A stretch of DNA of 64,000 bases from Squalus acanthias (taxonomy: Eukaryota), in NCBI GenBank assembly GCA_030390025.1, contig CM059432.1, positions 97,776,001-97,840,000 on the forward strand, read 5' to 3'. The translations under genes and the position numbers were made by a program. Below, piece by piece: positions 1 through 63,486 of this stretch (position 1 is its first letter; each line of letters begins with the position of its first letter). Under the pieces are notes generated by a model. The model was not told where the DNA came from. It worked only from the letters and a program-made list of their open reading frames with translations, and did no database searches.

Positions 1-919
1 TGAGGCTAGGGATATTCATGGAGCCTCCTCCTCCTGTTAGTTGTTTAATTGTCCACCACCATTCACGACTGGATGTGGCAGGACTGCAGAGCTTTGATCT
101 AATATGTTGATTGTGGGATCGCTTAGCTCTGCTGTTCAGCAGACATGTAGTCCTGTGTTGCAGCTTCCCCAGGTTGGCACCTCATTTTTAGGTATGCCTG
201 GTGTTGCTTTTCTGCAGTCCTCATTGAACCATGGTTGGTCCCGTGACTTGATGGTAATAGTAGAGTGAGGGATATGCCGGGCCATGAGGTTTCAGATTGT
301 GGTGGAATACAATTCTGCTGCTGCTGATGGCCCACAGCGCCTCATGGATGCCCAGTTTTGAGCTGCTAGATCTGTTCTGAATTTATTCCATTTAGCACAG
401 TGGTAGTGCCACACAACACGATGGAGGGTGTCCTCAGTGTGAAGACAGGACTTCATCTCCACAAGGACTGTGCAGTGGTCACTGCTACCAATACTGTCAT
501 GGACAGATGCGTCTGCGACCGGTAGATTGGTGAGGACGAGGTCAAGTAGGTTTTTCCCTCATGTTGGTTCTCTCACGACCTGTCACAGGCCCAGTCTTGC
601 AGCTATGTCCTTCAGGAGTCGGCCAGCTCAGTCAGTTGTTGTGCTTCCGAGCCACTCTTGGTGATGGACATTGAAGTCCCCCACCCAGAGTACATTCTGT
701 GCCCTTGCTACCCTCGGTGCTTCTTCCAAGTGGTGTTCAACATGGTGGAGTACTGATTCATCAGCTGAGGGAGGGCGGTAGGTGGTAATCAGCAGGAGGT
801 TTCCTTGCCCATGCTTGACCTGAAGCCATGAGACTTCATGGGGTCCGGAGTCAATGTTGAGGACTCCCAGGGCCACTCCCTCCTGACTGTGTACCGCTGT
901 GCTGCCACCTCTGGTGGGT
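1..919 (-). mobile_element. LINE family A (CR1-group non-LTR element), APE endonuclease region; continues beyond the window start
   Basis: ORF 628..876 gives LITTYRPPS...VLWVGDFNVHHQEW (APE motifs YRPP and GDFN). The sequence resumes at 3631 after a nested CR1. Confidence 0.85.
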
Positions 920-3630
920 CATAAGAACATAAGAAATAGGAGCAGGATTAGGCCATTCGGCCCTTCGAGCCTGCTCCGCCATTCAATGAGATCATGGCTG
1001 ATCTTCTGCCTCAACTCCATTCACCGGCCCTATCGCCATATCCCTTGATGCCTTTACTAATCAGAAATCTATCGACTTCTGTTTTGAATACACCCAATGA
1101 CTGAGCCTCCATAGCCCTCTGGGGTAGAGAATTCCAAAGATTCACCACCCTCTATGTGAAGAAATTTCTTCTCATCTCAGTCCTGAATGGCCTACCCTTT
1201 ATCCTGAGGCTGTGGCCCCTGGTTCTAGACTCCCGAGCCAAGGGAAACATTCTCCCAGCATCCACCCTATCAAGCCCTGTAATAATTTTATATGCTTCAA
1301 TGAGATCCCCTCTCATTCTTCTGAATTCAAGAGAATACAGGCCTAGTTTACTCAATTTCTTCTCATACGACAGTCCTGCCATCCCAGGAATCAATCTCGT
1401 GAACCTTCGTTGCACTCCCTCTATGGCAGGTATATCCTTCCTTAGGTAAGGAGACCAAAATTGTACACAGTACTCCAGGTGTGGTCTCACCAAGGCCCTA
1501 TATAATTGGAGTAAGACTTCTTTACTCCTGTACTCAAATCCTCTTGTAATGAAGGCCAGCATACCATTTGCCTTCCTAATGGCTTGCAGCACCTGCACAT
1601 TCACTTTCAGTGACTCATGTAAAAGGACACCCAGGTCCCTTTGAGCATCTGCATTCCCCAATCTTTCACCATTTAGGAAATACTCTGCCCTTCTGTTTTT
1701 TCTACCGAAGTGGATAACCTCACATTTATTCACATTATAATCCATCTGCCATGTTCTCGCCCACTCACTGAGCCTGTCGAGATCCCCTTGAAGCCTCTTC
1801 ACATCCTCTTCGCAACTGACACTGCCACCTAGCTTTGTGTCATCAGCAAATTTGGAAATATTACATTTAGTCCCCTCATCCAAATCATTGATATAGATTG
1901 TGAATAGCTGGGGCCCAAGCACCGATCCTTGCGGTACCCCACTAGTCACAGCCTGCCATCCTGAAAAAGACCCGTTTATCCCTACTCTTTGTTTTCTGTC
2001 TTTTAACCAATTCTCAATCCATGCTAGTATATTACCCCCAATTCCATGTGCCCTAATTTTGTTCACCAACCTCTTATGTGGGACCTTATCGAAGGCCTTC
2101 TGAAAATCCAAATACACCACATCTACCGGTTCCCCTTTGTCTACTCCACTAGTTACATCCTCAAAGAACTCCAATAGGTTTGTCAAACAGGAAGTCCCTT
2201 TCATAAATCCATGTTGACTCTGCCCAATCTTACTTTTAGTTTCTAAGTGCCCAGTTATTGCATCCTATATAATAGATTCCAGCATTTTCCCAACTACTGA
2301 TGTGAGGCTAACAGGTCTGTAGTTCCCCATTTTCTCTCTCCCTCCTTTCTTAAATAGCGGGGTTACATTTGCTATCCTCCAATCTGCAGGAATCGTTCCA
2401 GAATCTATGGAATTTTGGAAGATGACAACCAATGCGTCCACTATCCCAATGGCCATCTCTTTCAAAACCCTAGGATGTTAGTCATCCGGTCCTTGAGATT
2501 TATCGACTTTTAGTCTGATTAATTTTGCTAGTACTGTTTTTTTACTCGTATTAATTTCTTTAAGTTCCTCATTCTCGCCACGCCCTTGGTTTTCTCATAT
2601 TTCTGGGTGGTTTTTTGTGTCTTCCTCCGTGAAGACAGAAACACAGTATTTATTTAATTTCTCGGCCATTTCCTCATTCCCCATTATAAATTCTCCCGTC
2701 TCTGACTGTAAAGGACCTATATTTACCTTCACCAGTCTTTTCCTTTTCACATACCTATAGAAGCTTTTACAATCCATTTTTATATTTTTCGCTAGTTTGT
2801 GCTCATATTCTATTTTCCCTTTCTTTATCAATTTCTTGGTCCCCCTTTGCTGATTTCTAAAATGATCCCAATCCTCAGGCTGACTGCTTTTTCTGGCAAC
2901 TTTATAAGCTTCCTCCTTTGATGTAATACTAGCTTTAATTTCTTTTGTTAGCCATGGTTGGATCACTTTTTCTTTTGGGTTTTTATACCCTAGAGGAATA
3001 TATGTTTTTTGCAAATTATGCATTATTTCCTTGAATGTTAGCCATTGTATGTCCACCTTCATACCTTTTAGTGTAGTCTCCCAATCTACCATGGCCAACT
3101 TGTCCCTCATACCCTTGTAGTTTCCTCTGTTTAGATTGAAGACCTTAGTTTCAGATTGGACTACATCACTCTCAAACTTAATATAAAATTCAATCATATT
3201 ATGGTCACTTGTCCCTAAAGGCCCCTTTACCACAAGATTATTGATTAGCCCTTTCTCATTACACAGTACCAGATCCAGAATAGCCTGTTCCCTGGTTGGT
3301 TCCTCCACATACTGATCCAGGAAACCATCTTGCATGCATTCCAAGAATTCGTCCTCCACACCATTAATGGTAATTTGATTTGCCCAGTCAATATGTAGAT
3401 TAAAGTCCCCCATGATTACCATATTTCCCTTGTTACATGCACTTCTAATCTCTTGATTGATACTGTGCCCTACATTACCACTACTGTTTGGTGGCCTATA
3501 CACAACTCCCACCAATGTTTTCCGCCCTTTGCTGTTTCTTAGCTCCACCCAAATTGATTCCAGTTCTACATCACGATCTGTCAAGCCAAGATCTTTTATT
3601 TCTACCGTACCGATCTCATCCCTTATTAAC
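920..3630 (-). mobile_element. CR1 LINE, 5'-truncated, ORF2 (APE + RT) frameshifted, nested inside LINE family A
   Basis: ORFs show VVYRPP/GDFN/SDH, YRPVSLTS, YLDFQKAFDKVPH, GVPQGSVLGP and KFADD. The 3' tail (TTCTTATG)n reads cataagaacataag at 920. Confidence 0.95.
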
Positions 3631-4220
3631 AGTGGGACAGGACATACCTTGGGATGGTGATGGAGGAGTCTGGGACATTGACTGAAAGGTATGATTCTGT
3701 GAGTATGGCTATGCCAGGCTGCTGTTTGACTAGTCTGTGGGAAAGCTCTCCCAATTTTGGCACAAGCCCCAGATGTTAGTGAGGAGGACTTTGCAAGGTC
3801 GATTGGGCTCGGGGTGCCTTTGTTATGTCCGATGCCGGTGCTAAGGTCGATGCCTGGTTGTCCGTCCAGTTTTATTCTTATTATTGTTTCTTGTAGCAGT
3901 TTGTTACAACTGAGTGGCTTGCTAAGCCATTTCAGAGTCAACTACATTGCTGTGGGTCTGGAGTCACATATAGGCCAGACCAGGTAAGGACGGCAGATTT
4001 TCTTCCCTAAAGGACATTAGTGAACCAGATGGGTTTTTATGACAATCCGATAGTTTCATTGTTACCATTACTGATACTAGCTTTTTATTCCAGAGTTGTT
4101 TAATTAACTGAATTTAAATTCCCCAGCTGCCATGGTGGGATTTGAACTCACGTCTCTGGATCATTAGTCCAGGCCTCTGGATTACTAGTCCAGTAAAATA
4201 ACCACTATGCTTCCGTTCCC
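3631..4220 (-). mobile_element. 5' end of LINE family A: tRNA-like head, 5' UTR and start of the APE domain
   Basis: Minus strand: A-box-like AAGCATAGTGGT (4212..4201), B-box-like GAGTTCAAATCCC (4149..4137). Manual translation from about 3780 gives NIWG/VPKLGELSHRLVKQQPGIAILTESYL with one frameshift. Confidence 0.8.
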
Positions 4221-5656
4221 ATTAATCTTGCTCCTCCTCTTCCTCTCCCTTGTCCTTCTCCTGAGTTGAACCCGCAAACCCTGGTGGCAAGGGCTGCGCC
4301 CTCATGATGGCCAAGTTGTGAATTATGCAGCAGACCTCCATGAAAGGGGTCACCCGCACCGACATGTACTGGAGGGCTCCTCACGTGCAGTCAAGGCAGC
4401 GGACCCGTTGCTTCAGCAGCCCGATGGTCTGCTCGATGATGCGCCTGGTGGAAACATGGCTCTCATTATATGAGTGCTGGGCACGAGTGTTGGGGTTGCG
4501 GAGGGGAGTCATGAGCCAGGTGCAGAGTGGATAGCCCTTGTCTCTGAGCAGCCACCCTCGAGTTTGATGTGATGGCTGGAAAATTGCTGGCACACCGGAC
4601 TGACGCAGGATGAATGCATCATGGCTTCTGCCAGGAATTGACCATCAGGAAGCACTGGGAGTGGTCGCACACCAATTGCACATTAAGTAGCCTTTACAGT
4701 TATGGAAAAGCACAGGATTGTTATGTGGTGCCCGCATAGCCATGCTTGTGCATTCGATGGCACCCTGCACCATGGGGAAGCCCGCTATCCTGGCAAAGCC
4801 ACATACGTGCTCGTACTTCTTCTCTCTGCTGCAGACTGGAAGGATCCACTGGTGAAGAAATTGAGGGCCACGGTGACCTTGACTGCCACTGGGAGAGCCG
4901 TGTTCAGGAGGGGGCAGAGTTCTGTGACCACCTCCTTGGTGAAGCGGAGCCTCCTAATTCACTGCTCCTCGCTTAAGTGGATATAAGAGAAGTGCTCTCA
5001 CAAGACCCTAGGTGGGTAAGGCCTCCTGTTGTGAGCCCGCCTGGCCCTGCTCCCCCTCCCTCTGCACGCATCTTGTCATTTTCTTCGCTGCCTCCGCTCC
5101 CTCTCCCAAAGATACTCGAGCGCGAGGAGGACTGACAGTAGAGCCCCCATGACTGTGAGAAAGTGTTGTGAGCAGAAGCCTTTAAATAAGAATGAAGGCA
5201 TTCTCCACTTGCAACAACATTCCCTGTGACCATAGAATCTTGCAATAAGTTAATAAAGCTGCTGGAGTTGCAGAAAGTTGCACAGAGCCAGTCAAACTGG
5301 ACAAACATGTCAGCTGCAAGTGATTGTTGATGATCCCTTTAAATATCACTGCTGGAGGCTCCTTCAAGCTTGTCAACGCTTGCTCAGCTCGTCGCACTTA
5401 AGGCATGCCGGTATGTTGAACGGCGAACTCCAACCTCGCAGATTGGGCGTCAGGTGAGCGTTGCACAGTCACTGACGGCAAGATCTGCATCATCTACACA
5501 TCCCTTGTGATCGCTGACATCGGCAGCGCTGCCGGCCATCTGAAAATGGCAGCCACCGCAGGACCTGTCAGCAGCGGGCGGAAGTACAGCGGTCGCCATT
5601 TTTTTGCCCGAATCTGGTGGTATCGGGTGGTGCTAAACCCCCGAATTTCTAGGCCC
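4221..5656 (-). mobile_element. PIF/Harbinger transposon remnant (degenerate transposase plus one TIR)
   Basis: ORF 4381..4593 [18 protein letters not shown]...[22 protein letters not shown] is Harbinger DDE-like. The end reads aatttctaggccc (5644..5656). Confidence 0.85.
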
Positions 5657-7844
5657 ATGGCTTTACTTTGACTGAGCTGTCAATCAAATCATTCACTTGA
5701 TAACAGGGACCCAAGACTCTCCTACAGGCGAGTTATCCCTTGCCTTGGGCGGATATGTCCTTGGAGGAATTAATCCTTAGGAGGACAGCTGAGAGAGCTA
5801 CGGGGCGAGGACAAAGAAAGCTTCCAGCTGAATGCTTATCAGCTACACTTCTCTGGTAACTTTTAATTGCCACTGATCATTGAAACTAACTTAACAGGCA
5901 AAAGCTAAAAGATAATATAAAGTATTAACCCTTTCCTTCCACTCTGACTTATAAGCAGCACCATAGGAGAGTTACCATTTAATATCATTGGTTAAATTAT
6001 AGATTTGCACTTGTAAACTCTAAACTGTATTTTAAGTTTTGGACAAATTGCATTTTTGGAGCTGAAAATGGAACTAACATGTCAGAATGCAACGTTTTCA
6101 TAGCAGGGACTCAGTTATTTCATTTGTTTTGTTTTAATAAAGAATTTGCCAGTGCTGCAAAAGAGAATGAAGGTTTTGTGCAGGACATCCTTATTCTTAC
6201 CCAGACTAACGCAGGCAGTTACTGAAAGATTTTTATGACTTTGAACATAACTCTAGCTGTTATATTTAATGGCAAAATGTAACAGTTTATCTTATTATTG
6301 AATCTATTGTTCACTCCCCTCCTGCCCCAAAATAAATCGTACAGAAAATGTTCTAATAGGCTTAGCTTTTGACTGCGATTTAAATCTAGTGGTAAAGCTT
6401 GTTTAATGCTAAGCCATTTATTGTTATTTGTATAATGACTTTGAAGTTCACAATCCTTTCAATAGGTGGCTTTTCAATTTCAATCTGACACGGTATTGTT
6501 ACCTTCTTTATTGCAATTTTCCACCTTTTATGCTCTTCTAAATTCAACAATATTTTCATAGATGTACACACTGTCGTATTCATTTTGGATGATCACAAAA
6601 TGACAGAACACTGCATTTTTGGAGCAAAGACACACAGAAGTAAACATCTCTAATTGCAGCTACTGTTTCGGGACTAGCGTGTGATATTGATTTGTTTGAG
6701 TCTGAGAAAGTCGATAGCCGTGCATGCTCATAGACAGAACAAATAAGCTGGGTGAGCTTGGGCAAAAAGTATGTTTTAAAGATTCAATCTAGGTTTACTC
6801 ATAATATGAAATCTCACAAAATGGACCTGCTTCAAATACAACTAAAAAAACCTTGCGTTTTGTTTTCATTATTTCTTGCACAAGAAAATGGAATTGGAGG
6901 TCAAACGATGGTGCTTGATTGATATGTGCCAAGATTGGCAGAACCTGTCTTTAAGCAGGAGAGGCATGATATTTATTAAAGCATCTGCTTTTAATGTAGG
7001 TCCATGCATGCTGGAATCCATTTGCGTAGCCTTGTTTATGGAAGCTGTGAAGGGGAAGCAGAAATAATTGTTATGCCGGTTCTAGGAGTTTCTATTTGGC
7101 CCTTGTACAACGATCTGATAGTTGCAACATGGTTTGGATCATTGAATATTTATTGGGAATTTGGCGTGCACATTGAGAATTCTGAGTATGGGTCAGATCA
7201 TAGAGTGTCTATTAGACCATTAAACTACTTTAACTACTCAGAGGAACTGAATTTGAATGACTTTCCCAGTAAGTAATTAATTAATTCAGATTTTGGGTTC
7301 AGGCAATCCAAATTTCAGATAAGTCTGAATATGAATCTGATTCTGAAGTCTAAAGAAAACAGTTCAATGCACGAGAAGAATACGCTTTCATTAAACTGTT
7401 AGGGAATAAGATATATTTCATCTGAATAAGACTTTGAGGGCTAGAAATTGGGCTCCTTTGCATCTCCCGTTAGTGCTTCCGGGGGCACCTCCCGCTAAAT
7501 TCAGCAGGAGTTTTGCGGCAGCGGTAAGACCTTGTGCTCCGATCTCCTGCGCCCGGAGATCATGATGTCATTGCTGTGCGCAGCATCCCGGTAGCGCCCC
7601 GGATGAAAAATTCTCTCTCGCCCCCTGCCTGTGCGCCTGCCGTTAACAACGACGGGTAGAGGAGGCGGCTTTCAGTCGGATGTCCCCTGGAGGAGCGCTA
7701 TTTAAAGGCATCCACATCCGGTTTAGTTCTCGTTGGCCAACAATGCAGCGTTGATAGTTTCACATAGGCAAAGAGGCCTTTTGACCGATTTGAGCATTTT
7801 GCATTTTAACGAGTGTTCTGGCATATAAAGATTCTTCAGTTTCA

Positions 7845-9092
7845 TTGAGGGGAAATTTGAAAGTGCAATATTTGTACCCTTTACTGGGGGTTGTACTGGC
7901 ACTGGACCTCACCCTCCAGCGTCAACGTTGGAGGCAACTGAGTCACAGAGAAAGAGTGCAAAATGTGGCCAGAGGTAGAGGGGCCAACAGGGCTCGCAAC
8001 AGGAGGCTTTACCCACCCAGGGTATTCCGGCAGTTCTCCTACATGAATTTCACTGAGGACCAGTATGTTAGAAGGCGCTGCTTCAGCAAGGATGTGGTCA
8101 CAGAGCTCTGCCACCTTCTGCAACCAGACCTTGAGCCTCAGATCAAGAGCACCACGGCTCTCTCAGTGGCAGTCAAGGTCACCATTGCCCTCATTTTCTA
8201 CGCCAGCAGATCATTCCAGTGTGCGACAGGCGACATCTCCAACATCTCCCAGTTTGTCGTCCATTGCTCCATCCGCCAGGTCATAGATGCTCTGTAGAGA
8301 AGGAGAAGGGATTACATTTCCTTCCCCATGACTAGAGAGAGGCAGCACGAGCGTGCATGTGGCTTTGCCAGGATAGTGGGCTTCCCCATGGTGCAGGACG
8401 CCATTGACTGCACCCACATCACTTTGCGGGCACCTCATAACAATCCTGAGGTATTCCATAACTGCAAAGGCTACCACTCACTTAATGTGCAGTTAGTGTG
8501 CAACCACACATGGCGAATCCTGACCGTCAATGCCCACTATCCTGGCAGCAACCACGATGCCTTCATCCTGCACCAGACCGGTGTGCTAGCTCTATTCCAG
8601 CTACCACATCAAGCTTGCGGCTGGCTGCTGGGAAACAAGGGCTATCCACTCTCCACCTGGCTCATGACTCCCCTCCGCAACCCCAACACTCCTGGCCAGC
8701 ACTCATATAATGAGAGCCATGCTGTCACCAGGAGCATCATTGAGCAGACCATCGGAGTGCTCAAGCAATGGTTCTGCTGCCTTGACCACTCGGGAGGAGC
8801 CCTCCAGTACTCGGCTGAGCGGGTGTCACTTTTCATCATCGTCTGCTGCATGCTGCACAACTTGGCCATTATGAGGGCGCAGCCATTGCCACCAGACATA
8901 GCCACACCACCTCAGGAGGAGGAAGATGAGGACGAGGACAAGGACGAGGAAGAGGAGGAGGAAGAGGAGGAGAAGGAAGAAGAGGAGCTGGAGGAACAGG
9001 AGGACGAACAGCAGCGATGGAGGAGGCAGCTACTCTATCGGCATTCTGCAAGGTCGGTCCGTGACCATCTCATCAGACTTCGTTTCCAGTGA
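7845..9092 (+). pseudogene. Harbinger (HARBI1-like) DDE transposase, nearly full length
   Basis: ORFs 7845..8297 and 8328..9092 are in the same frame, split by one TAG at 8295..8297. Motifs AIDCTH, LNVQLVC, YPGSNHDAFIL, LLGNKGY (D to N), IEQTIGVLK, CCMLHN, and an acidic tail. Confidence 0.9.
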
Positions 9093-10914: not shown

Positions 10915-11388
10915 ACACACTCAAGATGGTCGACAACATCCAGGACAAAGCAGCCCGCTTGATTGGCACCACTTCCACCACCTTAATCATTCACTCCCTC
11001 CACTACCGGCGCACCGTGGCTGCAGTGTGTACCATCTACAAGATGCACTGCAGCAACTCACCAAGGCTTCTTTGACAGCACCTCTCAAACCCGCGACCTC
11101 TACCACCTAGAAGGACAAGGGCAGTAGGCGCATATGAACACCTCCACCTCCTTGTTCCCCTCCAAGTCACACACCATCTTGACTTGGAAATGTATCGCTG
11201 TTCCTTCATCATCGCTGGGTCAAAATCCTGAAATTCCCTACCTAACAGCACTATCAGAGTTACTTCACCACACGAACTGCAGCGGTTCAAGAAGGCGGCT
11301 CACAACCACCTTCTCAAGAGCAATTAGGGATCGACAATGAATGCCGACCTTGCCAGCAATGCCAACATCCCATGAACGAATAAAAAAA
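10915..11388 (+). mobile_element. LINE family A 3' fragment with A tail
   Basis: IQDKAARLIG...SLHYRRTVAAVCTIYKMHC, ending ...gccttgccagcaatgccaacatcccatgaacgaataaaaaaa. Matches 28385..28876. Confidence 0.85.
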
Positions 11389-26199: not shown

Positions 26200-26803
26200 T
26201 AAGAAGGCATATGGGATACTTTCCTATATTAGCCGAGGCATAGAATATAAGAGCAGAGAGGTTATGCTTGAACTGTATAAACCACTAGTTAGGACACAGC
26301 TAGGATACTACGTACAGTTCTGGTCACCACATTACAGGAAAGATGTGATTGCACTAGAGAGGGGACAGAAGAGATTTACGAGGATGTTGCTAGGACTGGA
26401 GAATTTTAGCTATGAGGAAAGATTGGATAGGCTTGGGTTGTTTTCTTTGGAACAGAGGAGGCTGAGGGGATACTTGATGGAGGTGTAAAAATTATGAGGG
26501 GCCTAGATAGAATGGATAGGAAGGATCTATTTCCCCTAGCAGAGAGGTCAATAACCAAGGGATTTAGATTTTAAGTAATTGGTAGAAGGATTAGAGAGGA
26601 GTTGAGGAGAACTTTTTGCACCCAGAGGGTGGTGGGGGGTCTGGAACTCACTGTCTGATAGGGTGGTAGAGGCAGAAACCCTCATCGCTTTTAAAAAGTA
26701 CTTGGATATGCATTTGAAGTGCCATAACCTACAAGGCTACGGACCAAGAGCTGGAAAGTGGAATAGGCTAGATAGCTCTTTTTTGGCTGGCACAGACACG
26801 ATA
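26200..26803 (+). mobile_element. CR1 3' fragment; its last ~50 bp resume at 27700..27750
   Basis: LYKPLVRTQLGYYVQFWSPHYRKD. The tail ttctatgattttatgatt follows the nested copy. Confidence 0.85.
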
Positions 26804-27699
26804 GCAGTATCAGTTGCGAAGAGGATGTGAAGAGGCTTCAAGGGGATCTCGACAGGCTCAATGAGTGGGCGAGAACATGGCAGATGGAATATAACGTGGA
26901 TAAATGTGAAGTTATCAACTTTGGTAGAAAAAACAGAAAGTTAGAGTATTTCCTAAATGGTGAAAGATTGGGGAATGCAGATGCTCAAAGGGTCCTGGGT
27001 GTCCTTGTACATGAGTCACTGAAAGTGAATGTGCAGGTGCAGCAAGCCATTAGGAAGGCAAATGGTATGCTGGCCTTCATTACAAGAGGATTTGAGTACA
27101 GGAGTAAAGAAATCTTACTCCAATTATATAGGGCCTTGGTGAGACCACACCTGGAGTACTGTGTACAATTTTGGTTGCCTTATCTAAGGAAGGATATACT
27201 TGCCATAGAGGGAATGCAACAAAGGTTCACGAGATTGATTCCTGGGATGGCGGGACTGTCGTATGAGAAGAGATTGAGTAAACTAGGCCTGTATTCTCTT
27301 GAATTCAGAAGAGTGAGAGGGAATCACATTGAAGCATACAAAGTTATTATAGGATGGATGCTGGGAGAATGTTTCCCTTGTCTGGGGAGCCTAGAACCAG
27401 GGGCCACAGCCTCAAGATAAAGGGTAGGCCATTCAGGACTGAGATGAGAAGAAATTTCTTCACACAGAGGGTGGTGAATCTTTGGAATTCTCTACCCCAG
27501 AGGGCTATGGAGGCTCAGTCATTGGGTATATTCAAAACAGAAGTCGATAGATTTCTGACTAGTAAGGGCATCAAGGGATATGGCGATAGGGCCGGTGAAT
27601 GGAGTTGAGGCAGAAGATCAGCCATGATCTCATTGAATGGCGGAGCAGGCTCGAAGGGCCGAATTGCCTACTCCTGCTCCTATTTCTTATGTTCTTATG
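26804..27699 (+). mobile_element. CR1 3' fragment of the same subfamily as 920..3630, nested in another CR1
   Basis: Peptide nearly identical to ORF 1152..2204, tail ttcttatgttcttatg, short atag duplication at the flanks. Confidence 0.92.
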
Positions 27700-28384: not shown

Positions 28385-28876
28385 TTTTTTAAATTAATTC
28401 ATGGGATGTGGGCATTGCTGGCAAAGCCAGCATTTATTGACCATCCCTAGTTGTCCTTGAGAAGGTGGTGGTGAGTTGCCTATTGAACCGCTGAAGTCTG
28501 TGTGGTGAAGGTACTCCCACAGTGCTGTTAGGGAGGGAATTCCAGGATTTGGACCCAGCGATGATGAAGGAACGGAAATATACTTCCAAGTCAGAATGGT
28601 GTGTGACTTCGAGGGGAACTTGGTGGTGTTTCCATGCGCCTGCTGCCCTTGCTCTTCTCGGTGGTAGAGGTCGCAGGTTTGGGAGGTGCTGCCGAAGAAG
28701 CCTTGGCGAGTTGCTGCAGTGCATCTTGTAGATGGTACACACTGCAGCTACGGTACGCCGGTGGTGGAGGGAGTGAATGTTTAAGGTGGTCAATGGGGTG
28801 GCAATCAAGCAGGCTGCTTTATCCTGGATGGTGTCGAGCTTCTTGAGTGTTGTTGGAGCTGCACTCATCCAGGCAA
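28385..28876 (-). mobile_element. LINE family A 3' end
   Basis: MSAAPTTLKKLDTIQDKAACLI...SLHHRRTVAAVCTIYKMHC, with an A tail at 28382..28390. Confidence 0.88.
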
Positions 28877-29530
28877 CAGGCTATCCTAGACTGGGTATTG
28901 AGCAATGAGAAGGGGTGAATTCATAATCTTGTTGTGCGGGGTCCTTTAGGGAAAAGTGACCATAACATGATAAAATTATTCATTAAGATGGAAAGTGAAG
29001 AAGTCCAATCCGAAACTAGGGTCCTAAATCTAAACAAAGGAAACTACAAAGGTATGAGGAGTGAGTTGGCTATGATAGATTGGGGAGCTTCATTAAAAGG
29101 CATGATGGTGGATAGGCAATGGCTAACATTTAAGGAACGAATGCATGAATTGCAACAGTTATACATTCCTTTCAGGTGCAAAAACACAAAAGGAAAAGCG
29201 GCCCAACCATGGCTAACAAAAGAAATTAAGGATAGTATTAGATCCAAAGAGGAGTCATATAAAGTTGCCAGAAAAAGTAGCAAGTCTGAGGATTGGGAGC
29301 TGTTTAGAGTTCAGCAAAAAAGGACCAAGAGATTGATTAAGAGGGGAAAAATAGAATATGAGAGTAAACTTGCAAGGAACATAAAAGTGGACTGTAAAAG
29401 CTTCTACAAGTATGTAAAAAGAAAAAGATTAGTGAAGACAAATGTAGGTCCCTTACAGTCAGAAACGGGAGAATTTATAATGGGGAACAAGGAAATGGTT
29501 GAGCAATTAAACAAATACTTTGGTTCTGTC
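28877..29530 (+). mobile_element. Internal CR1 ORF2 fragment
   Basis: GPLGKSDHNMI...QPWLTKEIK...KSFYKYVKRKR. Confidence 0.9.
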
Positions 29531-30270
29531 ATCAAGATCTTGTTGCATGCGGGCATAGACTGCTTCATTACCTGAGGAGTTGCAAATGGCACTGAACACT
29601 GTGCAGTCGTCAGCGAACATCCCCATTTCTGACCTTATGTTGGAGGGAAGGTCACTGATGAAGCAGCTGAAGATGGTTGGGCCTTGGACACTGCCGTGTG
29701 GAACTCTGCAGCGATGTCCTGGGTCTGAGATGATTGACCTCCAACCATCACAACCATCTTCCTTTGTGCTAGATAAGACTCCAGCCAGTGGAGAGTTTTC
29801 CCCCAATTCCCATTGACTTCAGTTTTACTAGGGCTCCTTGATGCCACACACGGTCAAATGCTGCCTTGATGTCAAGGGCAGTCACTCTCACCTCACCTCT
29901 AGAATTCAGCTGCTTTGTCCATGTTCGGACCAAGGCTGTAATGAGGTCTGGAGCCTAGTGGTCCTGCCGGAAACCAAACTGGGCATCGGTGAGCAGTTTA
30001 TTGGTGAGTAAGTGCTGCTTGATAGCACTATCAACGACACCTTCCATCACTTTGCTGATGATTGAGAGTAGGCTGATGGGGCGGTAATTGGCCGGATTGG
30101 ATTTGCCCTGCTTTTTGTGGACAGGACATACCCAGGCAGTTTTCCACATTGTCGGATAGATGTCAGTGTTGTAGCTGTACTGGAACAGTTTGGCGAGGGG
30201 CGCGGCTAGTTCTGGAGCACAAGTCTGCAGCATTACAGCCGGGATGTTGTCGGGGCCCATAGCCTTTGCT
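29531..30270 (-). mobile_element. LINE family A RT fragment
   Basis: GPDNIP...NYRPISLLSIISKVME...QFGFR and VPHGSVQGP...MFADD. Confidence 0.88.
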
Positions 30271-30494
30271 TTAGGGGGCTATTTTTTTCCATCAGGTTTA
30301 CACCCCATTTTCGTTCCACTAACATTTCCATCCCAGAGGGGAAGGACTGCTTCCTTTGCCTGCCCCTTCCCCAGTGCGCACCTGAGATGGATAGCGTAAG
30401 GCGTCAGAATTATTGGCATTTAAGCTGGTGTGTGGGTGATGAAAATGGACGGGGGTGGTCAAGGGTATCAGTAGCACATGGGTCAGGATGGTCA

Positions 30495-37639: not shown

Positions 37640-39950
37640 AGGTCAGTAGTGAGAAAGGATTTTGGATCAGAAGATCAGGAAGTAGAATTAGTATGGGTGG
37701 AGATAAGAAACAACAAGGGGCAGAAAACACTGGTGGGAGTAGTTTATAGACCCTCTAACAGCAGCTATACCGTTGGATAGAGTATTAATCAACAAATAAT
37801 AGGCGCTTGTAATCTTCATATAGACTGGGCAAATCAAATTAGCAAAGGTAGTCTGGAGGACGAGTTCATGGAATGCATTCAAGACAGTTTCCTAGAACAA
37901 TATGTCATGGAACCAACAAGGGAACAGGCTATTTTTGATCTTTTATTGTGTAATGAGACAGGGTTAATTAGTAATCTTATAGTAAAGGATCCTCTGGGGA
38001 AGAGTGATCATAATATGAAATAAATTCATGTTGAGTTTGAGAGTGAAATACTTCAGCAGAAAATGAGTGTCTTAAACTTAAATAAAGCCAATTACATAGG
38101 TATGATGGGTGAGTTGGCTAAGGTAGATTGGAAAATTAAATTAAAAGGTATGATGGTAGATAAGCAGTGGTAAACATTTAAAGAAATATTCCAAAATTCT
38201 CAACGAATATACATTCCATTGTGAAATAAAAACGCCATGGAAAAAGTAAACCATCCATGGATAACTAAAGAAGTTAAGGATAGTATTAAATTAAAAGAAG
38301 ATGCTTATAATGTTGCAATGAATAGTAGTAAGCCTAAGAATTGGGAGAGTTTTAGAAAGCAGCAAAGGATGACCAAAAAATTGTTAAAAAGGGAGAAAAC
38401 AGGATATGACAGTAAACTAACATGAAATATAAAAACAGATTATCAGATTGACAGAGCTTCTACAAGTATGTAAAAAGGAAGAGAGTAGCAAAAGTAAGCA
38501 TTGGTCCCTTAGAGGCTGAGATGGGAGAAATTACAATGGGGAATAAGGACATGGCAGAGACTTTAAACAAATATTTTGTATCTGCCTTCACAGTAGAAGA
38601 CACAAAAAGCATACCAAAAATAATGGGAAACCAAATGGCCAATGAGAGTGAGGAACTTAAAGTATTTAAGATCAGTAGAGAAAAAGTACTTGAGAAACTA
38701 ATGGGACTAAAAGCCAACAAATCCCCGAGAACTGATGGATTACATCCGAGGGTTCTAAAAGAGGTGGCTGCAGAGATAGTGGATGCATTGGTTGTGATCT
38801 TCCAAAATTCCCCAGATTCTAGAATGATCCTAGCAGATTGGAAGGTAGCAAATGTAACCACTATTCAAGAAATGAGGGAGAGAGAAAACAGGGAACTACA
38901 GGCCAGTTAGCCTGACATCAGTCACCGAGAAAATGCTGGGATCCATTATAAAGGAAGTGGTAACAGGGCACTTAGAAAATCATAATATGATTGGGCAGAG
39001 TCAACATGGTTTTATGAAAGGGAAATTGTGTTTAACAAATTTATTAGAGTTTTTGAGGATGTAACCAACAGGGTAGATAAAGGAGAACCAATGGATGTAG
39101 TATATTTGGATTTCCAAAAAGGCTTTCGATAAGGTCCCATATAAAAGATTGTTATGCAAGATAAGGGCTCATGGTTGGGGGTAATATATTAGCATGGATA
39201 GAGGATTGGTTAATGGACAGAAAACAGAGAGTAGGAATAAATGCATCATTTTCCAGTTGGCAGGCTGTAACTAGTGGGGTGCGGCAAGGATCAGTGCTTG
39301 GGCCTCAGCTATTAACAACCTATACTAATGACTTAGATGAAGGGACTGTACCGGGCGTAATGTATCCAAGTTTGCTGATGATACAAAGCTAGGTGGGAAA
39401 GTAAGCGTACTGTGCACAATTTTGGTCTCCTTATCTGAGGAAGGATATACTTGCCTTACAGGGATGCAACGAAGGTACACTAGATTGCTTCCTGTGATGA
39501 GTATGCTGTCCTATGAGGAGAGATTGAGTAGAATGGATCTTTAGTCTCTGGAGTTTAGAAGAATGAGAGGTGATCTCATTGAAACCTATAAAATGCTTAG
39601 AGGGCTTGACAGGGTAAATACTCAAAGGCTGTTTCCCCTGGCTGGAGAGTCTAGAACTAGGGGTCATAGTCTCAGGATAAGGGGTCGGCCACTTAGGACT
39701 GAGATGAGGAGAAATTTCTTCACTCAGAGGGTTTTGAAAATTCTTTACGCCAGAGGGCTGTGGATGCTCAGTTGTTGATTATATTCAAGACTGAGATTGA
39801 TAGATTTTTGGGCACTATGGGAATCAAGGGATAAGGGAATAAGGCGGGAAAGTGGAGTTGATTTAAAAGTTCAGCCATGACCTTATTGAATGGCAGAGCA
39901 GGCGCAATGGGCCACATGGCCTACTCCTGCTCCTATTTCTTATGTTATTA
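37640..39950 (+). mobile_element. CR1 LINE ORF2 relic with internal deletions
   Basis: KSPRTDGLHPRVLKE and SGVRQGSVLGP; 3' UTR ends ctcctatttcttatg. Confidence 0.92.
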
Positions 39951-39994: not shown

Positions 39995-42201
39995 GTAGTG
40001 TTTGAAAGGGAGAAACGCGAAACAGCTACTGAGATTCTCGGTTTAGGTAAGGCCGACTTGAACAGGATGAGGCAGAGACTGTCCACAGTAAACTGGGTAA
40101 ATCTGTTAATGAGTAAAATGACAGAACATCAGTGGGAGATGTCTAAAAAAAAATTGAATGTGATACAGAACCAGTTTATACCCCTGAGGGGAAAGAGCTC
40201 TACTTGCCAAAAAAAAGCCATGGACAACTAAAGAGGTAAGGGACAGTATAAAACTAAAGAAAGGGCATACAAAAATGCAAAAACTGGCACAGATCCTGGT
40301 GAATAGGAAAGCTACAAAGAACAGCAAAGGGTCACAAAACAGACAGTAAGAGCTACAAAAAAGGAATATGAAAAGAAACTTGCAAGGGATATCAAAATCA
40401 ATATGAAGAACTTTTATAGTTACACTAGGAAAAAGGGGGTGGTCAGGAGCAATGTTGGCCCCTTAAAAACTGAAAGTGGTGATATTGTCAATGACAATGG
40501 GGAAATGGTGGACAGTAGAAGAAGAGGATAGCATGCCAGAAATCCCAAGGAAACTAATATTGAATCGGTTACAGGGACTCAATAAAATTAATGTAAGTAA
40601 AATAACAGTAATGAAGAAAGTAATGGCACTAAAGAGTGACAAATCCCCAGGGCCATATAGTTTCCATCCCAGGGTTTTAAAGGAAATAGGTGAGCACATT
40701 GCAGATGCCCTAACTATAATCTTCCAAAGTTCTCTCGATTCAGGATCCGTCCCTTTAGATTGGAAAATTGCACATGTCACTCCGCTTTTTAAGAATGGAG
40801 AGAGCGGCCAGGGAATTATAGATCAGTTAGCCTAACATCTGTTGTCGGGAAATTGCTAGAGTCTATAATTAAGGATAGGGTGACTGAACACCTCAAAAAT
40901 TTTCAGTTGATCAGAGAGAGCCAGCATGGATTTGTGAAAGGTAGGTCATGCCTGACGAAACTGATTGAAATTTTTGAAGAGGTGACTAAAGTAGTGGACA
41001 GGGGAATGTCCATGGATGTTATTTATATGGACTTCCAGAAAGCATTTGATAAAGTCCCACATAAGAGATTGTTATCTAAGGTAGAAGCCCACGGAATTGA
41101 GGGCAAATTATTGACCTGGTTAGGAAATTGGCTGAGCGGCAGGAGACAGAGAGTAGGGATAATGGGCAGGTACTCTAATTGGCAGGATGTGACTAGTGGT
41201 GTCCCGTGGGGAGCTGTGTTGGGGCCTCAACTATTCACAATATTTATTAATGACTTAGATGATGGCATAGAAAATCATATATCCAAATTTGCCGATGACA
41301 CAAAGATAGGCAGCATTGTAGGCAATGTAGATGAAAGCATAAAATTACAAAGGGATATTGATAGATTAAATGAATGGGCAAAACTGTGGCAAATGGATTT
41401 CAATGTAAGCAAATGTGAAGTCATCCACTTTGGACCTAAAAAAGATAGAACAGCGTACTTTCTAAATGGTGAAAAGATAAAAACAGTGGATGTCCAAAGA
41501 GACTTGGGGGCTCAGGTACATAGATCATTAAAATGTCATAAACAGGTACAGAAAGTAATTAACAAGGCTAATGGAATGCTAGCCTTTATATCTAGAGTAC
41601 AAGGTGGTAGAAGTTATGCTGCAACTATACAAAACCCTGGTTAGACCACAACTGGAGTACTGTAAGCAGTTCTGGGCACCACACCTTAGGAAGGATATAT
41701 TGGCCTTGGAGGGAGTGCAGCGTAGGTTTACCAAAATGATACCTGGACTTCAAGGGTTAAGTTACGAGGAGAGATTACACAAATTAGGGTTGTATTCCCT
41801 AGAATTTAGAAGGTTATGGGGTGATCTGATCGAAGTTTTCAGGATATTAAGGGGAACAGATAGGGTAGAGAGATTGAAACTATTTCCACTGGTAGGGGAT
41901 TCTAGGACTAGGGGGCATAATCTAAAAATTAGAGCCAGATCTTTCAAGAGTGAAATTAGGAAACACTTCTACACACAAAGGGTGGTAGAAGTTTGGAACT
42001 CTCTTCCGTAAACAGCAATTGATGCTAGATCATTTGTTAATTTTAAATCGGAGATTGATAGCTTTTTGTTAACCAAAGGTATTAAGGGATATGGGCCAAA
42101 GGCGGGTATATGGAGTTAGATCGCAGATCAGCCATGATCTCCATGAATGGCAGAACAGGCTCAAGGGGCTGAATGGCCTACTCCTGTTCCTATGTTCCTA
42201 T
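39995..42201 (+). mobile_element. CR1 LINE ORF2 relic, different subfamily
   Basis: QHGFVKGRSCLT, YMDFQKAFDKVPH, KFADD; tail gttcctatgttcctat. Confidence 0.93.
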
Positions 42202-51600: not shown

Positions 51601-53205
51601 TGATAGAGAACAGGCCAACACAATAGAACTATACGAATAAGCCAGCAAACCTATCAATTCTATTTATTCTGGTTCATTTTAAACTCAGAATGTACTTACA
51701 AAAATAAATGCTTAACAAGGTTACCCAGAGTAACAGGAACAAAAGTTAAATACTACCAGAAAAAATGAGATACAGGTCTGCTGTATAAAATGATGAAACA
51801 AGGTCCCCAATTTTCGGCTCTCTGTTGCTCCGATTTTCAGCATGAACAGGTCAGTAAAATAGCAGATGAAAATAGCAAAAATAAACTTCCCACCAACTTC
51901 CTGACTGAGGTGGGCCTTGAATTAGGTGACAGCGCTCCACCAGAAAAAGGCAGGAGCTTGACTACTGCATGTAAATCAGGGTCCTGTAGTGTCATTGGGA
52001 CCCCAATGCCATTTTGGTCATCATCAGCATGGCACCCATTCAGGGGTAGGCGGCATGGAGTGGGATATGGTCAGGACCAGCACAGGTCAAAGGAATTGAT
52101 GGAAGCAGGTCTGACAATTTTATTAATTGATGGTTTTGCAAGATTTATGCCTTCACGGTCAACTTAATTGTTCCCTTTGTATCACCTTCAACGTCCTCAA
52201 CTCCTTTATTGATGCCTTCTATCTCTCCCCAATCAGCCCAACCCTCCCTTTTAATGTGCTGCTGCAGGCCCTTGCTCCGTGGCTGTTCTGCTGGATTTCC
52301 CACCCTCACAATACAGTGAGCTGCCAGTCAGCACCTGAAATGCATGGGCAGCTCACCAATTCGATGTAAATGAGGCCCTAGTGTCAAAATGGTTCGGGCA
52401 TCTCACCAATAACATCAGGCAGGCGTTGCTATCGCTCCGCCCAATGTCTGCTGAAGAGCAAAACCATAGGCACTATGTCTCACAGTCCCTCAGGTGAAAC
52501 TTATGTTAGTGAGGACTAGTGGATGCATATTTAACAAAATCAAGATATGTCAAGAATAAACCTTATAGTTATTTTCAATGATTTTATAATAATAGTTTCC
52601 TAGTTTATATTGCAGTAAAGTAGTATTTGCAATGCAGTAAGAGCTTTAAAAAATGTAAGTGCAGTGAGTTGCCATGACCTGTGTCTCTTTCTGGGTAAAA
52701 TAAGGGTAGTTAGGACAGAACAGGCTAAAAATTCAGTTGTGTAGCGCCCGTTGCTTGGGCACTACAGGTGTCAAATTGGGCCCAAAATGGCGTCCAAGCA
52801 ACATGCGCACACTTCTGGTGCGGGCCATGCCAGAGGCCATATTAGTGAGGGCAGTAGGGTGGCCGTTAGGAGCGTGCGCTGGAAGTATGGTAAGTAGACA
52901 GATTGTGATGTCAATCAGCGTGCAACACTGATTTGATGCCAGCGCTGCCATGTTCATCATCATTGCTGGAGCTAACACCCTCTCTTAACCTCGCACAGCA
53001 GCAGGAAGGACCCACCAACAGCATTATTTAAAGGGATCATCACCAACTTTCAGGTAATTTGCTTTTTGATTTCTATTGGCTCTGTGTACATTTGTGGAAG
53101 TGTTTGGAGCTTTCTAGAGTTGTTTAAAGTTGGGGAGGTGACAGGGAATGGTGCTACAAGTGGAGAAGGTCTTGCTTCTGACTTCAAGGGTTCTGGTCAG
53201 ACCAC

Positions 53206-54092
53206 TTGCTCCCAGTCATGGGTGCTCTAGTTGCCATCCCCCTTGGCCTGCAGCATGACAGGGAAATGGAGCAGAGGCAGCAAAGAAGAGGAAAAGCAGC
53301 TCACAGAGGGAGGAGGAGGAGGGGGAAAAGGGCTCTCAGCAGGAGGCCTTACCCACCTACTGTCTTCCAAGAGCAATTCTCTTACCTCAGCCTGAACCAG
53401 GAGCAGTGTGTGAGGCGTCTGTGCTTCACAAAGGAGGTGCTCACAGAACTCTGCCACCCGCTGCAACCAGACCTGCAGCCTCACTCCAGGGCAAGGGCAG
53501 CGCTGCCAGTGGCTGTGAAGGTGACCGTGGCCCCGAATTTCTTTGCATCGGGATTCTTCAAGGCTGGAGCAGTCAACATCAGTAACATCTCGCAGATTGT
53601 CATCCACTGCTGCATAAGAGAGGTGAGAGAAGTTCTTTATGCCAGGAGAGGGGAGTTCATTGTCTTCTCTCCGGCCAGAAAGAAGCAGGCAGAGCCTGCA
53701 CGTGGCTTTGTCAGGATAGTTGCCTTCCCCAGAGTGCAGGACACTATCGACAGCACACACGTGGCCTTGCAGGCAGCGCTTCTAAATGCTGAGATGTACT
53801 GCAACTGCAAAGGTTTCCACTTGGTAAATGTGCAGTTGGTGTGCGACCATGCTCAGCACATCATGATGGTGAATGCCTAGTATCCTGGCAGCAGTCATGA
53901 TGCTTTTATTCTGCACCAGTCCGCTGTTCCCTCAGTCTTTGAGCCACCACGACAAACCAGAGGATAGCTCCTGGGCAACAAGGGCTATCCCATGACCACC
54001 TGGTTCATGATTCTGTTCCTTAACCCAACCACACGTGGCCAGCATACGTACAACGAGAGCCATACTGCCTCACGAAACATCATAGAGCAGAC
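53206..54092 (+). pseudogene. Harbinger transposase, 3'-truncated with stops
   Basis: RRPYPP, TIDSTHV, VNVQLVCDH, stop at 53878..53880, then YPGSSHDAFIL and LLGNKGYP. Confidence 0.88.
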
Positions 54093-63157: not shown

Positions 63158-63486
63158 GAGACTTGAGCACACAAATCTAATTTGATACTCCAGTGCAGTA
63201 CTGAGGGAGTGCTGCACTGTCAGAGGTGCCGTCTTCGGATGAGACTTTAAACCAAGGCCCCGCCTACTCTCTCAAGTGGATGTAAAAGATCCCATGGCAT
63301 TATTTTGAAGAAGAGCGGGGGAGTTATCCCCGGTGTCCTGGCCAATATTTATCCCTCAATCAACATCTGGTCATTATCACATTGCTGTTTGTGGGAGCTT
63401 GCTGTGTGCAAATTGGCTGCCATGTTTCCTACATTACAACAGTGACTACACTTCAAAAACACCTTCATTGGCTGTAAAACGCCTTG
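63158..63486 (+). mobile_element. SacSINE1-like SINE body inside a CR1 3' fragment (62998..63157 and 63487..63541)
   Basis: cagtgcagtactgagggagtgctgcactg, flanked by CR1 3' sequence ending ttcttatgttcttatg. Confidence 0.8.

Follow-up and report, generated by a model that had tools for sequence, protein, structure and literature searches.

A shark Zenon LINE with a tRNA-Gln-derived head and a terminator-poor sense strand is a candidate for Pol III transcription

In the textbook division, LINEs are transcribed by Pol II and SINEs by Pol III, and long coding RNAs are thought to lie beyond Pol III (PMC10886601). Non-SINE retrotransposons with small-RNA-derived Pol III promoters are nevertheless known, namely the TRIMp3 elements Cassandra, Helenus, and Ajax, but unlike the element described here these are non-autonomous, LTR-type, and 0.3–1.3 kb long, and their autonomous partners must, according to the same author, use Pol II (PMC10886601). 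The tRNA-derived SINEs (SINE2), including the shark SacSINE1 (DeuSINE; PMC5499810), have the same A/B-box head, a conserved body, and a LINE-type tail, whereas shark Zenon is coding, 3.3 kb long, and has a body that is not the Deu domain. Single-ORF non-LTR elements whose RNA is uncapped, with translation proposed to be IRES-like, include the R2, L1Tc, and RTE elements that carry HDV-like ribozymes and cut themselves from co-transcripts (PMC6765202). By contrast, shark Zenon has a tRNA-type promoter at its 5' end; Rfam gave no ribozyme family at E ≤5, and a loose HDV descriptor had no match in the first 480 nt. Lepidopteran Zenon LINEs, at 3.1–3.7 kb, likewise spawn, time and again, internally deleted derivatives that keep both ends, such as the SIDE Persaeus (PMC6740152), but Persaeus is stated to be without tRNA homology or a Pol III promoter, while shark Zenon and its derivatives carry a tRNA-type promoter. 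The elasmobranch Zenons (SquAca_Zenon-1/2/3 and CarCar, HypSab, RhiTyp, and ScyCan_Zenon-1; Stuart et al. 2026, PMC13343379) have the same ~3.3 kb length, APE and RT, lack of ORF1, and poly-A tail as our element; the missing ORF1 is common to all Zenons and nothing special to the shark element. Neither "tRNA" nor "polymerase III" occurs in the main text of that paper or in its preprint, and in the available part of it we found no mention of the head, the terminator depletion, the AUG-less start, or the SINE derivatives; the first three appear to have gone unremarked so far.

The window, by which we mean the whole 64,000-nt stretch of Squalus acanthias DNA analyzed here (GCA_030390025.1, CM059432.1, positions 97,776,001 to 97,840,000), contains a dead Zenon copy split by a CR1 insertion, together with separate Zenon fragments (Table 1). 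Alignment to the family consensus places all five window pieces in the same single family. The interval 1..4220 singled out in an earlier note on this DNA holds the head and ORF pieces of the element and, at 921..3631, 2.7 kb of an unrelated CR1. The split copy extends ~500 nt beyond the window start, to consensus position 2080.

Table 1. Positions of Zenon-related features in the window (numbered from its first letter).
Feature	Position	Strand	Remarks
Zenon piece	4220..3632	-	consensus 1-602
Zenon piece	920..1	-	consensus 613-1563; locus L050
ORF continuation, APE and linker	1..920	-	several stops
Separate Zenon fragment, RT region	30273..29528	-	consensus 1751-2498
Separate Zenon 3' fragment, with stem-loop tail	28876..28398	-	consensus 2815-3300
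Separate Zenon 3' fragment, with tail	10917..11381	+	consensus 2841-3305
CR1 LINE, unrelated, 5'-truncated, ~2.7 kb, inserted in Zenon copy	921..3631	-	served as control
tRNA-Gln-derived head (by alignment)	4129..4220	-	4220 = element 5' end; aligns to this genome's tRNA-Gln genes
A box	4202..4212	-	from sequence; consensus 9-19; first base mutated in window copy
B box	4138..4149	-	from sequence; consensus 71-82
Single T4 run	4195..4198	-	private to window copy
Conserved 5' UTR block, candidate ribosome-recruiting element	3907..4040	-	consensus 181-326; ends at ORF start
In-frame TAA (3906..3904), then AUG-less ORF start	3632..3906	-	basic linker and first APE motifs

The Zenon family consensus is ~3.3 kb long (3305 nt) and encodes APE and RT in one ORF of 973 codons (consensus 330–3248) with no ORF1, which bears out the single-ORF structure originally proposed. 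Pfam PF14529, PF03372, and PF00078 were matched on natural copies. All 13 copies shown have A-rich ends, a poly-A tail of the Zenon type, and no target-site duplications were evident in these 13. Over its first 400 nt, SquAca_Zenon-1 agrees with our consensus almost letter for letter (by eye), and by sequence the window element is a member of the published elasmobranch Zenon family (PMC13343379). In an RT tree the shark element stood apart from the window CR1s (support 0.95) and on the side of a lepidopteran protein, with low support within that group and with labelled Zenon proteins not among the sequences. Copies had a median identity of 96.6% to the consensus, and no intact full-length copy was present among those fetched. 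A metagenome scan and a viral scan gave no finds. The sequencing runs covered consisted of contigs or DNA reads, neither of which carries information on strand, start, or polymerase; an RNA-labelled run contained Zenon sequence as contigs only, and with a repeat of this abundance such contigs say nothing about expression.

On the minus strand, the element had been described as starting with A- and B-box-like motifs, and both were seen, at 4212..4202 and 4149..4138. The 51 nt between them fall within the range tolerated by type 2 Pol III promoters. The head is of tRNA-Gln origin: it aligns to tRNA-Gln genes of the same genome, and its B-box core is identical to the tRNA-Gln T-arm. Zenon begins within ~1 nt of where the mature tRNA begins. 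A tandem repeat at 4154..4193 reflects a duplication of 21 nt from the anticodon arm. ARAGORN called no tRNA in the head, and the Rfam tRNA match on a sister copy was weak (E=1.2, below gathering).

The coding element carries this head as a constant component. Among 29 copies chosen by APE, with the head not used in selection, 19 reached consensus position 196 or earlier and 15 position 13 or earlier; the remaining 10 were truncated at 317–555 and shared no common alternative upstream sequence. Exact block-to-ORF (LINE-type) junctions numbered 2693 genome-wide, and the B box retained 97.6% identity over copies (non-CpG columns). The published consensuses of CarCar, HypSab, RhiTyp, ScyCan, and SquAca_Zenon all begin with the head (by eye), and all five keep both boxes while the sequence between them has diverged, with changes that preserve pairing (by eye). 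Both the head-blind sample and the five species speak against the head being a one-off. The head was absent from the first 400 nt of hagfish and coelacanth Zenons, and the 5' ends of hagfish Zenon-1 and -2 contain T4+ runs. No B box occurred upstream of the ORFs of 63 control APE-RT LINEs, many of which have little upstream DNA. An older subfamily with the head of the other species was sought by a single 33-nt pattern, which had no exact match; absence does not follow from this.

The sense strands of the five window pieces contain exactly one T4 run, and 1..919 has no TTT, reproducing the counts in the earlier note. Because the family consensus has no T4 on its sense strand, the run at 4195..4198 is a private mutation. 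Many T runs had been remarked on the antisense strand and on the neighboring CR1 sense strand. The antisense consensus carries 40 motifs of the terminator panel (T4+, TVT3, T2VT2, and T3VT, from PMC3141230), and CR1 has 3.14 T4/kb (35 kb) vs. 0.16/kb in Zenon copies (262 kb) of the same genome; Harbinger, also of this genome, has 1.9/kb (5.8 kb). The claim of TTTT depletion fared less well when taken literally, as the lack of T4 alone was not significant (P=0.11 by codon permutation and 0.21 by dinucleotide shuffle; P=0.10–0.21 over all tests), but it stood with the full panel. The 3305-nt sense strand holds only one weak T2CT2 and no canonical or strong motif, vs. 12.1 panel motifs expected under mononucleotide shuffling (0/5000 shuffles), 5.7 under codon permutation (P=0.007), and 6.6 under dinucleotide shuffling (P=0.005). 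Panels rebuilt on A, C, or G gave counts at expectation. For TTT, 5 were observed vs. 11.2 expected by codon permutation (P=0.005), and 7 vs. 10.9 by dinucleotide shuffle, which was not significant (P=0.08). The sense strand is thus strongly depleted of Pol III terminator-type motifs.

None of 63 related APE-RT LINEs had a T4-free ORF, including all six with T ≤22.5%, and the lowest panel ratio among these controls was 0.71, vs. 0.08 in shark Zenon. The T content of the Zenon consensus is only 19–20%. Depletion of TA (z −3.9) is nearly as strong as that of TT (z −4.2), and some control ORFs reach a similar codon-permutation z (TT −4.2 in L169, T3 −3.1 in L199). Phe makes up 1.85% of the Zenon ORF, and after GC correction the residual is no more than z −1.9. 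The nearest non-shark relatives are also Phe-poor (amphioxus, 1.56%), which weakens low Phe as evidence specific to sharks, and some of the T poverty may accordingly be inherited from an ancestor. Of 71 shared variants none creates a T-run, though only ~2 would be expected to.

APE coding was initially placed ~440 nt after the head. This is correct for the APE fold, but the window reading frame itself opens earlier, at 3903 (consensus 330), immediately after the in-frame TAA, with a stop and a frameshift inside 3632..3906. The first in-frame Met of the ORF is at codon 287, leaving no AUG ahead of the APE domain, and none of the eight upstream AUGs in the 5' UTR is joined to the ORF. That no in-frame AUG precedes codon 287 is a further reason to expect unconventional translation. 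The shared variants comprise 31 N, 40 S, and 0 stops, for a dN/dS of ~0.23; the APE part of the ORF is under purifying selection, and was so while the element carried the head. Several possible starts were rejected. A near-cognate ACG at codon 4 is not conserved, since the other four species either have ACA in its place or lack it. An in-frame TTG is followed by a stop in the shark family. Conserved −1 frameshifting from the consensus-274 AUG was dismissed as well, the slippery-looking A-run differing between subfamilies. An ATG at codon 4 occurs in just 5/48 copies and fits CpG decay of ACG. Ahead of the ORF, the 146-nt block at consensus 181–326 is ~94–98% identical over the five published species consensuses (by eye), and we regard it as a candidate ribosome-recruiting element. 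It had no match to Rfam IRES families, and strong RNA structure was unsupported by its folding energy (MFE z only −0.6 vs. shuffles).

Judging from these sequence features, Pol III likely transcribes the family over its whole length, and translation likely proceeds with neither a cap nor an AUG. TFIIIC would bind the A and B boxes, and Pol III would initiate at or just upstream of the head. It would then traverse 3.3 kb from which terminators had been selected away, terminating where the flanking DNA past the A-tail offers its first T-run. The 146-nt block would recruit ribosomes to a non-AUG start near consensus 330–341, and the resulting protein would engage the 3' stem-loop together with the A-tail to carry out target-primed reverse transcription. 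Deletion of the ORF would leave head, block, and tail as a ready-made SINE, many times over. With a little less assurance, we lean toward the broader reading that an elasmobranch autonomous coding lineage switched to Pol III, such that, given a tRNA-Gln promoter, a 3.3-kb coding strand cleared of terminators, and an IRES-type non-AUG start, one uncapped RNA would be both mRNA and template, ORF deletion would yield SINEs, and the block would be a ribosome-binding module explaining conserved SINE bodies. The earlier reading of a Pol III-transcribed autonomous LINE is partly supported: at the level of sequence none of its refuting conditions holds, as the head is constant in the family, an ORF1 is missing, and terminator-like motifs are depleted. 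R2 offers a precedent, as a LINE with uncapped RNA for which IRES-like translation is proposed (PMC6765202). Counting against the model, Pol III processivity has been held to limit such elements to ~0.1–1.3 kb (PMC10886601).

The coding RNA could instead be made by Pol II, from an internal promoter in the head region or by read-through trimmed at the tRNA-like head, with T poverty arising from another pressure such as avoidance of UU/UA-cutting nucleases or of U-rich 3'-processing signals. Such an arrangement is favored by the example of L1, whose ORF2 is translated AUG-independently from capped RNA, and by a 5' end so close to that of the mature tRNA, where RNase P-type trimming would put it. 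LINEs are also described as Pol II units (PMC10886601; PMC5786205), TA depletion accompanies TT depletion, and low Phe is common to non-shark relatives. However, terminator-type motifs remain depleted vs. the dinucleotide shuffle, CR1 and Harbinger of the same genome show no such depletion, five species keep both boxes, and ribosomes that scan would run into eight upstream AUGs without reaching one for the ORF. We consider Pol II transcription unlikely, though it is the strongest of the rivals.

A division of labor would require neither an IRES nor a coding role for the Pol III RNA: that RNA would be only the reverse-transcribed template, the protein would be supplied in trans by less common capped Pol II transcripts, either read-through or spliced, and the headed element would be a very long SINE-like template with an ORF. 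This accounts for both the head and the terminator depletion and agrees with the unremarkable folding energy of the block. Yet the purifying selection seen on ORFs of head-carrying lineages is easiest to explain by action in cis. A source subfamily lacking the head or bearing an AUG did not turn up, given that the 10 truncated copies share no other 5' end and a codon-4 ATG occurs in 5/48. We regard this scenario as rather improbable. That the head is a one-off SINE beside a truncated LINE, with T poverty as compositional chance, has a negligible probability. Head-bearing SINE-like elements do exist and T content is modest, but the LINE-type junctions, the head-blind sampling, and the five species consensuses refute the former, and the panel statistics contradict the latter.

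If Pol III transcription is correct, a high-copy vertebrate LINE would break the LINE/Pol II rule and supply a naturally occurring Pol III mRNA whose translation element works independently of cap and AUG. SINEs could also be born directly by deletion from a headed LINE, a route not listed in PMC5786205, where the sources named for bipartite elements are only RTE, Ingi, Vingi, and R2, with heads added later. The role of conserved SINE bodies, an old question, would become testable via simple reporters. SINE-like internal-deletion derivatives of Zenon, ~390 nt long, have arisen repeatedly, and 192 exact junctions of such head-bearing derivatives were counted. Their breakpoints lie at consensus 325–333, and full-length SINE-like derivatives keep the conserved block. 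Only these ~390-nt derivatives, and not the 3.3-kb LINE, are "short and non-coding" in the sense of SINE2. Identity of the body with Deu/SacSINE1 was rejected: of the diagnostic Deu motifs, taken from PMC7245038 Fig. S4, two were absent at 2 mismatches and the third was loosely matched. True Deu copies, 13 in number, were located elsewhere in the fetched DNA, and a true DeuSINE, a family apart from Zenon, also occurs in the window.

The tRNA-like head is a constant part of the LINE. All 40 candidates scored (one of them the window itself), out of 8967 returned by a genome search with the head plus the APE start, spanned the head-APE junction. Because this sample was biased toward headed copies, we resampled head-blind, choosing copies by APE sequence only and fetching 29 non-self copies. 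Fifteen extended to consensus position 13 or lower and four more to 35-196; the remaining 10 were 5′-truncated at 317-555 and shared no alternative upstream sequence. Whether copies routinely carry the head, a question raised by the earlier note, is thus answered affirmatively, with 19/29 head-blind copies reaching position 196 or lower and 2693 exact block-to-ORF junctions genome-wide. Among 20 RT-selected copies, nine extended into the 5′ UTR and the others were truncated within the ORF.

The head derives from tRNA-Gln, being alignable to tRNA-Gln genes of the same genome, with a 21-nt duplication of the anticodon arm. It is degenerate as a tRNA, as ARAGORN made no tRNA call on it and Rfam gave E = 1.2. 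We note that tRNA-Gln-like genes form a long tandem array in this genome (contig G000:C21:3337426-3408704 and beyond), with alternating CTG and TTG anticodons and a repeat unit of ~1.19 kb.

Zenon is a known LINE family, described in elasmobranchs, coelacanth, and hagfish in PMC13343379; every Zenon there has a poly-A tail and no ORF1. Judged from the initial 400 nt of each consensus, the head opens 7/7 elasmobranch entries from five species, and by eye the 146-nt block is ~94-98% identical to ours; identity of >84% is quoted for whole consensuses. These published consensuses show, by eye, pairing-preserving changes in one stem of the block and one of the head. Their ORFs, where readable, open without ATG, and the RhiTyp consensus is one base off just upstream of the shared Ala codon. 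By contrast, the head is missing and T4+ runs occur in the first 400 nt of hagfish Zenon-1 and -2; the coelacanth entry has low-confidence sequence at its start. Term searches of the accessible text found no mention of tRNA in the paper or its preprint, or of Pol III or promoter in the preprint. Our literature search, with most subscription papers and Repbase notes outside it, found no report of an autonomous LINE with a Pol III promoter head, and this surprising expression design is apparently unreported.

A majority consensus from 97 loci (3305 nt) contains one ORF only (330-3248, 973 codons), in agreement with the single-ORF structure originally proposed. APE and RT Pfam domains are present on natural copies, and the element closes at its 3′ side with a stem-loop (z −2.7) and then an A-tail; no target-site duplications were evident in 13 copies examined. 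An in-frame TAA lies directly before the ORF, whose first Met comes only at codon 287, beyond the entire APE domain; none of the eight AUGs in the 5′ UTR is continuous with the ORF. From block to first APE motif, the distance is 129 nt in 30/48 copies. Shared variants (non-CpG, frequency at least 12% among copies) comprised 31 nonsynonymous and 40 synonymous changes and no stops, with dN/dS ~0.23 vs. 0.65 for rare changes; the APE part past the linker held 6 nonsynonymous and 7 synonymous. Therefore, the Zenon protein, including its AUG-less part, was under selection while the head was attached. Activity today seems doubtful because copies match the consensus at a median of 96.6% identity and no natural open frame among 150 RT matches exceeds 874 codons.

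A two-codon uORF (Met-Ala-stop; consensus 303-311, window about 3930..3922, minus strand) lies in the ORF frame, stops 18 nt upstream of the ORF start, and is present in the first consensus of 5/5 species; it is a possible termination-reinitiation signal. The last block hairpin (consensus 298-326, window about 3907..3930, minus strand) may resemble the CORE-SINE domain.

The near absence of TTTT from the sense strand, also claimed previously, was confirmed. The consensus has no T4 run, but this is unremarkable by itself at 19% T (P = 0.11, synonymous-codon permutation; P = 0.21, dinucleotide shuffle). TTT occurred 5 times vs. 11.2 expected (P = 0.005, codon permutation), which was marginal against dinucleotide shuffles (P = 0.08). 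Terminators as a class are depleted. Our panel (T4+, TVT3, T2VT2, T3VT) comprised motif classes at which human Pol III terminates according to PMC3141230. The consensus sense strand contained one panel motif (a weak T2CT2), compared to expectations of 12.1 by mononucleotide shuffling (0 of 5000 as low), 6.6 by dinucleotide shuffling (P = 0.005), and 5.7 when the codons of the ORF were permuted (P = 0.007). On the antisense strand there were 40, and equivalent motifs built on A, C, or G occurred at expectation. Genomic Zenon copies contained 0.16 T4/kb (262 kb) vs. 3.14 in CR1 (35 kb) and 1.9 in Harbinger (5.8 kb). Of 80 related metagenome control loci, 63 with ORFs of at least 400 codons were used and 17 dropped; none of the 63 ORFs was T4-free, and the lowest observed/expected panel ratio was 0.71 vs. 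0.08 for Zenon. Phe makes up 1.85% of the Zenon ORF and is lower in 1/144 homologs.

Taken at the sequence level, these features make it fairly probable that Pol III transcribes the whole element, with an uncapped RNA, non-AUG translation, and retrotransposition via the 3′ tail. Pol III would start from the tRNA-Gln boxes, and the transcript would end at T-runs in flanking DNA. The conserved block, perhaps as an IRES, would set the putative exact non-AUG start on the uncapped RNA, and the resulting protein would retrotranspose the RNA. Dicistrovirus IGR IRESs initiate at Ala or Gln codons, and the Zenon ORF likewise opens with Ala/Gln codons, which may be coincidence.

Pol II transcription, with T poverty of another cause, is an unlikely alternative. 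Counter to selection against terminators, TA is depleted too (z −3.9), similar codon-permutation z values for TT or T3 occur in a few controls, and the nearest relatives are Phe-poor as well; set against this are the promoter-like boxes and a panel depletion that persists under dinucleotide shuffling. That Pol III makes the template while protein is supplied in trans would account for the head and the terminator depletion with no IRES required, yet seems improbable beside the selection on the ORF with the head attached. A one-off chimera of head and LINE is scarcely credible with so recurrent a junction. The proposed Pol III design, headed and terminator-poor, may extend beyond sharks. The nearest non-shark relatives, P0029 (Branchiostoma lanceolatum, CAH1239463.1), P0024, P0032, and P0052, are 38-40% identical, with 1.6-2.6% Phe.

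SINE-like derivatives are also present, with 192 exact junctions of the 5′ block end to the 3′ tail in the genome and 14 distinct junction sequences among 30 fetched derivatives. Those of sufficient length carry a head identical in kind to that of the LINE, and the block-tail joint recurs in contigs of 3/4 other sequencing runs, from three organisms. By their appearance, the derivatives arose from the headed LINE through internal deletion, more than once. Persaeus, from a lepidopteran Zenon, is likewise an internal-deletion derivative but, unlike the shark elements, lacks a Pol III promoter, according to PMC6740152. We rejected a Deu domain as the derivative or LINE body by comparison with the Deu motifs in Fig. 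S4 of PMC7245038; true DeuSINEs are a separate family here. Three shark gene models (P0002, aldo-keto reductase; P0013, SVEP1-like; P0022, LRRC32-like) contain Zenon ORF fragments, as either prediction chimeras or exonization.

Within the window, A- and B-box-like motifs were found at the minus-strand start, as described from the sequence alone, and the five pieces grouped there proved to be a single family with one T4 run in all and no TTT in the sense strand of 1..919. The copy is dead (stops, frameshifts) and extends ~500 nt past the window start. It lost ~10 nt at the CR1 insertion and appears to adjoin the acidic C-terminal end of one Harbinger/PIF-type remnant.

Zenon copy and neighboring features in the window
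Feature	Position	Strand	Basis or remarks
Zenon copy 5′ end	4220	-	sequence
A-box-like motif	4212..4202	-	sequence
B-box-like motif	4149..4138	-	sequence
Sole T4 run in sense strands of five pieces	4195..4198	-	
Unrelated 5′-truncated CR1 inserted in Zenon ORF	921..3631	-	APE + RT remnants, microsatellite tail
Harbinger/PIF-type transposase remnant	4230..4950	-	
Harbinger/PIF-type transposase remnant	7794..9092	+	DDE_Tnp_4 on 8298-9089
Harbinger/PIF-type transposase remnant	53182..53880	+	
True Deu-domain SINE, SacSINE1-like, family distinct from Zenon head	about 63180..63460	+	

Further CR1 pieces lie at 26776-27420, 28919-29575, 38452-38910, and 40467-42011. Elsewhere in the genome, four Zenon loci (L122, L089, L097, L098) have an inverted segment joined to the remaining element and resemble twin-priming products.
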